Source: a virus. From it: DNA of 64,000 nucleotides. The stretch's first letter is position 1; every line of letters begins with the position of its first letter. The position numbers and the translations under genes are program-made. Shown one piece after another: positions 19,686-19,771 of this stretch. The stretch is taken from positions 152,297 to 216,296 of IMG/VR virus record IMGVR_UViG_3300037245_003526. One strand, 5' to 3'. The notes beneath the pieces are model-generated. The model saw only the letters and a program-made list of their open reading frames with translations, did not search any database and was not told the origin of the DNA.

Positions 19686-19771
19686 GAGGTAGTACACTAA
19701 TGGTAAGTGGCCAGGTTTCCACCCTGGTGTCTTCTTTGACATTGCGGGTTCAAGTCCCGTCTACCTCTCCA
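19686..19771 (+). tRNA. tRNA with anticodon TCC (Gly) but a 16-nt class-II-like variable arm
   Basis: acceptor GAGGTAG/CTACCTC, D-stem CACT/AGTG, anticodon stem CCAGG/CCTGG with loop TTTCCAC, variable arm TGTC-TTCTTT-GACA, T-loop TTCAAGT, CCA. Confidence 0.55.

Follow-up and report, generated by a model that had tools for sequence, protein, structure and literature searches.

The window analysed here is a 64,000-nucleotide (nt) stretch of viral DNA (positions 152,297 to 216,296 of IMG/VR record IMGVR_UViG_3300037245_003526), and at 19686–19771 on its + strand lies an 86-nt gene, including an encoded CCA, for a glycine tRNA with the anticodon UCC, which we call Gly(UCC). Bacterial tRNA shape classes are usually held to be fixed, with a long variable arm (class II) only on Leu, Ser, Tyr and Sec tRNAs. 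The variable region of Gly(UCC), TGTCTTCTTTGACATT (19728–19743, +), departs from the short class-I loop: it has 16 nt and a hairpin rather than 4–5 nt. A sequence-only reading of the window had described the gene as a cloverleaf Gly(TCC) with a 16-nt arm built on the stem TGTC/GACA, and ARAGORN, Rfam, the minimum free energy (MFE) fold and our own parse of the cloverleaf agree on this structure. To judge from its sequence, this is very probably a real, functional tRNA-Gly.

ARAGORN calls a tRNA-Gly that ends exactly at 19686 and 19771, with the anticodon tcc at position 33 of the gene; our parse likewise puts TCC at 19718–19720 (+), in the loop TTTCCAC, where it would decode GGA and GGG. The Rfam model RF00005 scores 57.0 bits on 19686–19768 (threshold 29), mid-range among the tRNAs of the window's array, and treats 12 nt of the variable region as an insertion. 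The MFE structure of the 86 nt is a cloverleaf plus a variable-region hairpin at −31.5 kcal/mol (z = −3.5), and none of 200 shuffles is as stable. Every stem is fully paired: the acceptor GAGGTAG/CTACCTC is followed by U8 and A9, the D arm CACT-AATGGTA-AGTG by G26, and beyond the anticodon arm CCAGG-TTTCCAC-CCTGG and the T arm GCGGG-TTCAAGT-CCCGT come the discriminator U73 and the encoded CCA. The stem sizes (acceptor 7, D 4, anticodon 5 and T 5 bp) are those of an elongator tRNA-Gly cloverleaf, and the conserved U8, A14, G18G19, U33 and TTC (T54-T55-C56) are all there.

The extra arm consists of the stem TGTC/GACA (19728–19731/19738–19741; a GTC/GAC core plus a U-A pair), the loop TTCTTT (19732–19737) and two unpaired 3' nucleotides, TT (19742–19743), all on the + strand. 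Its hairpin has a free energy of −3.5 kcal/mol, which none of 5,000 shuffles of the same 16 nt matched, and its size is like that of the same phage's class-II arms (Ser 16, Leu 14–15, Tyr 14 nt). An alternative fold with a variable loop of normal length, which could have made the arm illusory, is offered by neither ARAGORN nor Rfam. Nor is the contrast with other glycine tRNAs overstated, as 133 of 138 sampled tRNA-Gly genes have the 4–5 nt that had been given as the bacterial norm. A terminator-like call inside the tRNA (anticodon hairpin plus T-rich arm loop) is put down to chance; a shuffled sequence is expected to yield one such match, and the orthologue described below lacks the T-run.

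Body, identity elements and orthologues

By its sequence, Gly(UCC) is a class-I glycine body with a hairpin of 10–12 nt inserted after position 44, and not a class-II tRNA with an altered anticodon. We read the arm as an insertion because the D arm is of class-I type (4-bp stem, 7-nt loop), because the closest 5' halves belong to ordinary 71–77-nt tRNA-Gly(UCC) genes and because excision restores a 4-nt loop. The background sample for this comparison comprised 817 tRNAs, pooled from other loci and from a scan of metagenomes for the anticodon-loop and T-loop signature of Gly(UCC), which reached at least 120 contigs, mostly with ordinary tRNA-Gly and many of them carrying large arrays. Removing 12 nt, GTCTTCTTTGAC (19729–19740, +; the apparent insertion), leaves TATT, the putative ancestral loop, and removing 10 nt from the orthologue leaves TGTT; 4 nt is the modal Gly variable loop (100 of 138 tRNA-Gly). 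After excision, U44 (opposite G26) and U48 (the partner of A15) are still in place. The arm might also have been grafted from a tRNA-Leu, but its resemblance to Leu arms is no more than marginal (uncorrected p = 0.04 in the window gene and 0.22 in the orthologue).

The orthologue lies on L002, a 3.6-kb contig from another Joint Genome Institute (JGI) sample that we reached through homologues of the open reading frame (ORF) between the two Gly tRNAs of the window. Its gene order is that of the window: Val, an ORF for an immunoglobulin-like (Ig-like) protein, Gly(UCC), an ORF and Gly(GCC). The L002 gene is 84 nt long, with the variable region TGCTATTAAGCGTT, and matches the window gene at 63 of 70 positions outside the arm (90%). 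Within the arm stem, five of eight nucleotides differ and all four pairs are kept (U-A to U-G, G-C unchanged, U-A to C-G, C-G to U-A), two pairs having changed on both sides and one on one side; the loop differs in length as well as in sequence. Two double-sided changes are seen in the acceptor stem too, and the L002 arm is more stable than 98% of its own shuffles. Such compensation suggests that pairing in the arm is probably under selection.

The window and L002 share only 56% identity in the neighbouring Ig-like protein, so the arm appears to have survived a long divergence. An assembly indel, raised in the sequence-only reading as a possible source of the extra nucleotides, is ruled out by the same contig, since an independent sample has an arm of diverged sequence. 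Other searches returned no further copy. Among the matches listed in the metagenome scan there was no new orthologue; tRNA patterns, whether exact or degenerate, and two proteins flanking the gene found none in IMG/VR, where one locus reached from a flanking protein (L001) has no tRNAs and a scan limited to long arms with the Gly(UCC) signature gave one match that is not a tRNA; and a 25-nt 5'-half pattern found no match in GTDB genomes.

A further relative, L127, comes from a 167.8-kb NCBI metagenome contig and was reached through a 430-aa anchor ORF (13856–15148). It is syntenic with the window (phosphoribosyltransferase, Ig-like protein, DHO-dehydrogenase-like protein and OMP decarboxylase) and has 26 tRNAs. 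Its Ig-like protein is 59% identical to that of the window, and from the two identities (56% and 59%) window, L002 and L127 are about equally distant. The 5' half of its Gly(UCC) is of the Gly(GCC) type, so we take that gene to be a paralogue with a changed anticodon and not a trimmed copy. In the window this sequence type is that of the second Gly tRNA of the array, Gly(GCC) (20440–20514, +; 75 nt, normal variable loop; ARAGORN), and a tRNA of this type fills the Gly(UCC) slot in L127. An alignment with homologues, proposed earlier to see whether the arm is conserved, accordingly gives a divided answer: the arm is kept in L002 and absent from the L127 Gly(UCC). Taken from these sequences, the Gly(UCC) arm is old and maintained in two lineages, and it is not needed for a Gly(UCC) in this slot. 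More distant members of the clade found with the anchor protein (L128–L131 and L133–L136) have no Gly tRNA near the anchor.

The identity elements of Gly(UCC) fit its anticodon in most respects. It bears U73, G1:C72, G3:C70, C35 and C36, and the bacterial glycine identity set is U73, G1:C72, C2:G71, C35 and C36 (PMC9976931); pair 2:71 is A:U in the window gene and C:G in the L002 orthologue. The true class-II tRNAs of the phage carry A73 (Leu, Tyr) or G73 (Ser), and the other long-arm tRNAs bear cognate marks (U73 on Cys, A73 on Lys, C1xA72 on initiator Met, G-1/C73 on the His tRNA of L127). Correct charging is therefore likely, since the discriminator fits the anticodon in all long-arm tRNAs examined. 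GGA makes up 303 of 706 Gly codons (43%) in 33 ORFs of the window and there is no second UCC tRNA within it, so Gly(UCC) would serve a major codon.

As a separate observation, A2:U71 stands in place of C2:G71 in most Gly tRNAs of the phage group (window 19686–19771 and 20440–20514; L127 15339–15414; L002 2291–2365). The TacT toxin recognises tRNA-Gly through U73 plus G71 (PMC9976931), and U71 might be a further escape feature or merely what the host glycyl-tRNA synthetase (GlyRS) tolerates.

Long arms on other class-I tRNAs

Gly(UCC) is one of four armed class-I isoacceptors in the window. The three companions singled out in the sequence-only reading are real, with variable regions of 19 (Met), 17 (Lys) and 14 nt (Cys) in the ARAGORN calls and our parse, and its remark that this phage arms class-I isoacceptors repeatedly is borne out. 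The first is a 90-nt initiator-type tRNA-Met(CAU) at 6866–6955 (+), whose 19-nt arm has a 6-bp stem. It shows the bacterial initiator hallmarks, a C1xA72 mismatch, GGG/CCC in the anticodon stem and A73, together with a class-I D arm. Its L127 orthologue (7218–7307) retains the arm, with one stem pair changed from U-G to C-G, and unrelated arrays contain further long-arm Met(CAU) tRNAs with a 1x72 mismatch (L003 3806–3897, L054 769–856).

The second, tRNA-Lys(UUU) at 23660–23747 (+), has 88 nt, A73, a 17-nt arm (5-bp stem) and a D arm with a 3-bp stem and a 10-nt loop. The third, tRNA-Cys(GCA) at 24321–24406 (+), has 86 nt, U73, a 14-nt arm and a D arm of class-II type, TCC-GAGTGGTCTAA-GGA. Over nt 8–43 it shares 89% identity with the tRNA-Tyr annotated in Erwinia phages Micant and Loshitsa2, and it is probably a remoulded tRNA-Tyr, derived through one anticodon change (GUA to GCA) and a discriminator change. 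Long-arm Cys(GCA) tRNAs recur in unrelated arrays (L060 4770–4857, L073 2306–2394, L054 1912–2002, L103 4561–4644, L010 2206–2291); they have a class-II-type D arm, and U73 in those checked. The suggestion that the four arms are insertions consequently holds for Gly and fails as a statement about all four, since the D arm is of class-II type in Cys and probably also in Lys.

The set of arm-bearing isoacceptors, as read from these sequences, turns over among relatives. L127 shares the long-arm initiator Met and has a second long-arm Met(CAU), and its Lys and Cys tRNAs, besides having short arms, are not related in sequence to those of the window. It adds a long-arm His(GUG) (8131–8216; 86 nt, G-1, C73, class-II-type D arm) and a long-arm Arg(ACG) (18601–18686; 86 nt). 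In L132, which is 44% identical on the anchor protein, there is a long-arm Ile(UAU) of 95 nt at 11178–11272 (−).

The His arm of L127, TGCTCTTAGAGCGT, is similar to the Gly arm of L002 and to the Leu(UAG) arm of the window, a hint of arm exchange that is not statistically secure. An arm module common to isoacceptors was tried as an explanation and not retained: the L002 Gly and L127 His arms score 8.0 where the null maxima average 6.7 and reach 11, which is suggestive only. The tRNA cluster of L132 also contains a CCA-adding enzyme and an RtcB RNA ligase, at 1341–2672 (−) and 4754–5935 (−). These repair genes suggest that tRNA damage by host defences matters in the wider phage group.

Across the 817 pooled tRNAs, class-I variable regions are either 4–8 nt (mostly 4–6) or 10–25 nt long, and none has 9 nt. 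Long arms are carried by 7 of 42 Met, 6 of 21 Cys, 4 of 47 Lys, 3 of 138 Gly and 3 of 81 Arg tRNAs, by one each of His, Ile, Trp, Thr, Glu, Phe and Pro, and by none of Val, Ala, Asp, Asn and Gln. Of long-arm Gly(UCC) there are few cases: the window, L002 and a weak one in L051. The 30 long class-I regions have a mean MFE of −3.06 kcal/mol, against −0.74 ± 0.18 kcal/mol in shuffles, a value that none of 1,000 shuffles reaches. Most of them (27/30) sit in arrays of at least five tRNAs, and one or more are present in 17 of the 49 arrays of this size; their tRNAs score 49–61 bits in Rfam.

The D arms divide these tRNAs into remoulded class-II bodies (all Cys, the L127 His, the window Lys, one Thr and one Glu) and class-I bodies with an inserted hairpin (Gly, initiator Met, the L127 Arg, the L132 Ile and one Trp), and this division points to two separate origins of long arms, insertion and class-II remoulding. 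The reverse class switch also occurs, as the variable loop is short (4–7 nt) in 24 of 47 'Leu' tRNAs and in 3 of 14 'Tyr' tRNAs. An example is the L127 Leu(UAA) (5798–5875; 78 nt, 55.9 bits in Rfam, A73), which has a short loop; the arm of the window's Leu(UAA) is normal at 15 nt. Two of the arrays hold other structured RNAs: a bacterial class-A RNase P RNA (242 bits) lies inside the 31-tRNA array of L060 (1676–1988, −) and a HEARO (HNH endonuclease-associated) RNA in the 18-tRNA array of L103 (5181–5395, +).

What the arm may do

We favour a reading in which Gly(UCC) is a working glycine tRNA with an inserted, selected arm that may help it to escape host defence, and we would give this statement as a whole a probability of roughly 45%. 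The tRNA would be charged with glycine by the host GlyRS and would decode GGA and GGG, with the arm jutting sideways out of the L-shape, as it does in tRNAs for Leu, Ser and Tyr, tolerated by EF-Tu and the ribosome and leaving amino-acid identity unaltered. The arm would be kept because other tRNA-binding proteins then see the molecule differently: the phage copy would be a poor substrate for host tRNA-targeting nucleases or toxins and would still supply a heavily used codon. Taken by itself, this anti-defence purpose is a tentative proposal, plausible but less likely than not.

Phage tRNAs are established counter-defence tools (PMC10264068, PMC11464382, PMC11555353). Retron-Eco7 PtuAB and Septu cleave host tRNA-Tyr in its variable arm, from which phage tRNA-Tyr escapes by a longer arm, and shortening that arm restores defence (PMC12673091, PMC13096335). 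tRNA-Gly is a toxin target in other systems, FaRel2 reportedly selecting tRNA-Gly and tRNA-Thr. We favour an anti-defence role because of the precedents for phage tRNAs in general and for variable-arm escape by tRNA-Tyr, because of the RtcB and CCA-adding enzymes of L132 and because of the patchy turnover of arms. In its broadest form, the arming of class-I tRNAs, initiator included, would be a widespread and undescribed phage counter-defence, a steric shield against host nucleases and toxins that leaves charging and decoding intact, with the turnover of isoacceptors reflecting an arms race with the defences of different hosts. We consider this extension rather unlikely, and offer it as the more speculative of the two.

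Several points weigh against the favoured reading. The precedent for variable-arm escape is tRNA-Tyr, which is already class II, and to our knowledge no nuclease that hits class-I tRNAs at the variable region has been tied to phage escape. GlyRS is a class-II synthetase and nears its tRNA from the variable-loop side, so the arm may clash with it and even carry a cost. The window gene has A2:U71 instead of the identity pair C2:G71, and C10:G25 where the Gly consensus has G10. In L127 a Gly(UCC) of normal length, 76 nt, suffices at this slot, and the patchiness of arms equally fits a near-neutral tolerated insertion. The Gly arm is known from two sequences only, so its covariation is thin (two double changes), and the hairpin may be kept only since an unstructured insert would misfold the tRNA, which accounts for the compensatory changes. 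Finally, known escape from anticodon nucleases proceeds by anticodon-loop mutations and not by extra arms (PMC10264068, in which the variable region was looked for and is not mentioned).

The strongest alternative, which we also hold to be possible but not probable, makes the arm a nearly neutral, tolerated insertion. Here the variable loop accepts extra nucleotides, phage tRNAs are under relaxed constraint with host tRNAs as back-up, and only compact hairpins survive, their pairing being kept to avoid misfolding. The arm is, after all, missing from the Gly(UCC) of L127, moves among isoacceptors and has no sequence motif in common with the other arms, and the bimodal lengths (4–8 or 10–25 nt) are what a structural filter would produce. 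Its rarity on Gly (3 of 138 tRNA-Gly, and none in IMG/VR with the signature), the absence of an associated factor from about 40 ORFs and the short-armed 'Leu' and 'Tyr' tRNAs, which suggest a general structural looseness, fit as well. However, small hairpins are easily deleted, and this one persisted while a neighbouring protein fell to 56% identity; the gene in L127 was replaced by a paralogue rather than trimmed. Neutral tolerance also sits uneasily with the enrichment of arms on Cys (6/21) and Met (7/42) against Gly (3/138) and none on Val, Ala, Asp, Asn and Gln, and with one third of arrays (17/49) having a long arm. As heavily used codons are served, relaxed constraint is not obvious.

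An improbable alternative gives the arm a partner within the phage, either as a shape handle for a phage protein (a modification enzyme, chaperone or synthetase) or as an RNase processing signal in tRNA-mRNA transcripts. Several armed tRNAs per genome would suit such a role, as would the conserved 15-bp hairpin just 3' of the tRNA, and a factor could lie elsewhere, the window being 64 kb of a genome of about 245 kb; weak, sub-threshold similarities mark a KTI12-like/AAA_28 protein (4970–5491) and a PTH2-like protein (26214–26507). However, the arms within the phage have stems of 3–6 bp, loops of 3–6 nt and 1–3 unpaired 3' nucleotides, with no common sequence or geometry, and close relatives differ in the isoacceptors that are armed. 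The downstream hairpin is unique in the window, hence no general tRNA-flanking signal. A search of about 40 neighbouring ORFs for a tRNA-binding factor found no tRNA-related Pfam domain above threshold. The shared recognition element for a phage factor that the sequence-only reading entertained is therefore not borne out, given four arms without a common motif, isoacceptors that differ in L127 and no factor among those ORFs, although a factor may conceivably recognise arm shape alone.

More improbable still is a switch of identity, in which the arm makes the tRNA a substrate of seryl-tRNA synthetase (SerRS), or of the leucyl or tyrosyl enzyme (LeuRS, TyrRS), and GGA is partly read as Ser, Leu or Tyr. 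SerRS identity lies mainly in the size of the extra arm and not in its sequence (PMC9976931), the arm of the phage tRNA-Ser(GCU) is as large as the Gly arm (16 nt, 4-bp stem), and nematode nev-tRNA-Gly is mischarged and yet used by ribosomes (PMC3333845). Against this, Gly(UCC) has U73 and not G73 (Ser) or A73 (Leu, Tyr), and A73 is present in all 115 nev-tRNAs (PMC3333845). Its body is Gly-like, not Leu-like, with G1:C72, G3:C70, C35 and C36 there (and C2:G71 in L002), and the base of the arm has 2–3 unpaired 3' nucleotides versus one in the phage Ser and Leu tRNAs. Ambiguity at GGA, with 43% of Gly codons, would harm every protein. A decaying or non-functional gene, or an assembly artefact, is hardly credible, for although the variable region is atypical and A2:U71 and C10:G25 are off the Gly consensus, the gene has perfect stems, an encoded CCA, the conserved bases, 57 bits and a major codon to serve as the sole UCC tRNA in the window, and an independent sample yields an orthologue that agrees with it at 90% of positions outside the arm and shows compensatory changes in acceptor and arm.

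If Gly(UCC) is indeed a working glycine tRNA with an inserted arm, it has no exact counterpart among the known systems compared here. The closest in appearance is the nematode nev-tRNA-Gly(CCC) (Hamashima et al. 2012, PMC3333845), which likewise joins a stem-loop arm of 15–16 nt to a glycine anticodon and has been shown to enter ribosomes and take part in translation (PMC3333845). The nev-tRNAs are eukaryotic, however, and are of tRNA-Leu origin, with A73, Leu-type D and V arms and leucine as their amino acid; the phage tRNA has a Gly body, U73, Gly acceptor pairs and the anticodon UCC rather than CCC, and its charging is probably correct. Allo-tRNAs, the (8/4) tRNA-Ser and tRNA-His molecules of Mukai et al. 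2017 (PMC5389517), are similar in being non-canonical, in coming from metagenomes and phage clusters and in including several long-armed forms with unexpected anticodons. They differ in their acceptor/T branch, which is 8/4 or 9/3, and in a D arm like that of tRNA-Sec, whereas Gly(UCC) is 7/5 with a 4-bp D stem and a 7-nt loop.

Class-II tRNAs proper (bacterial Leu, Ser and Tyr) share the 14–16-nt variable region, as judged by this phage's own, and the 3–5-bp hairpin, but their 3-bp D stem, D loop of at least 10 nt, A73 or G73 and Leu, Ser or Tyr anticodon are all lacking in Gly(UCC). By sequence Gly(UCC) thus fails a defining feature of each of these three groups, and the most fitting description is a bacterial-type tRNA-Gly whose arm is non-canonical. 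Engineered tRNAs with aptamer-tagged variable arms (PMC7590224) are synthetic suppressors on a long-armed allo-tRNA chassis; Gly(UCC) is a natural sense-codon tRNA with a class-I body.

For function, the nearest parallel is the tRNA-Tyr of phages SP15 and T5 against PtuAB (PMC12673091, PMC13096335), where the phage arm is also unlike the host copy in length and that difference decides whether the host nuclease defeats the phage. Those tRNAs are class II already and only about 5 nt longer, and Gly(UCC) has gained a whole arm on a class-I tRNA. We know of no nuclease that targets tRNA-Gly in the variable region. The open-access literature yielded no description of long arms on class-I phage tRNAs, although earlier reports may exist, and the long arm on a class-I phage tRNA is thus apparently a real and undescribed variant.

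On its own the Gly gene is a structural curiosity; the wider pattern, with long arms in about a third of the phage-like arrays sampled and from two origins, is more unexpected. If these tRNAs are charged correctly, synthetases of the GlyRS type tolerate an arm that textbook class-II geometry suggests would obstruct them. If the arm protects from host tRNA nucleases, it would represent a new kind of escape, distinct from anticodon-loop mutations. Annotation pipelines may mislabel long-arm class-I tRNA genes or drop them as pseudogenes. Natural class-I tRNAs that tolerate an arm could also be useful scaffolds for tagged or orthogonal tRNA engineering.

The phage and its tRNA array

An uncultured jumbo phage of T4-like type is the source of the window. 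Its genes include those for a Gp23-type capsid protein and a Gp20-type portal, for a family-B polymerase fused to UDG and a DnaB-like helicase, and for NAD and pyrimidine salvage. The G+C content of the window is 31%. The capsid protein, found on a 244,552-bp JGI contig, has hundreds of metagenome relatives at 77–97% identity, and the best identity to cultured phages (INPHARED) is only about 25%. Megablast and blastn searches of INPHARED with a 2-kb region, a 1.2-kb region and the tRNA alone gave no DNA match.

ARAGORN finds 21 tRNA genes at 4.2–26.6 kb, all on the + strand. Genes for salvage products are interleaved with them, on the same strand: NAMPT/NAPRTase (4–1386), an AAA_28 kinase-like protein (4970–5491), a phosphoribosyltransferase (17374–17973), a DHO-dehydrogenase-like protein (22936–23652) and OMP decarboxylase (25090–25767), and L127 is arranged alike. 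Ten nt 3' of Gly(UCC) begins a 15-bp inverted repeat, TCGACCCTTCAATCA/TGATTGGAGGGTCGA (19781–19825, +), unique in the window, whose 3' arm holds the GGAGGG ribosome-binding site of the next ORF and which ends at the ATG of that ORF, at 19826. The repeat is kept in L002 (about 1628–1678), has no T-run and is not called as a terminator; a role as a translational operator or as a processing site of RNase III type is conceivable. It is part of the neighbourhood and not of the tRNA itself.

The array closes with a tRNA of anticodon CUA (26513–26587, +), an amber suppressor that ARAGORN labels 'Pyl'. TAG is still the stop of 6 of 33 ORFs checked, and its read-through would link a long ORF to 84–86 further in-frame codons in two candidate frames, 17362–18228 (+) and 41357–42310 (+). 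TAG recoding, partial or stage-specific, is possible. Beyond the array, a 936-aa ORF (30576–33386, −) has a match to the major vault protein shoulder domain (PF11978, E = 7e-20) and a weak one to a vault repeat, which is unusual in a phage.

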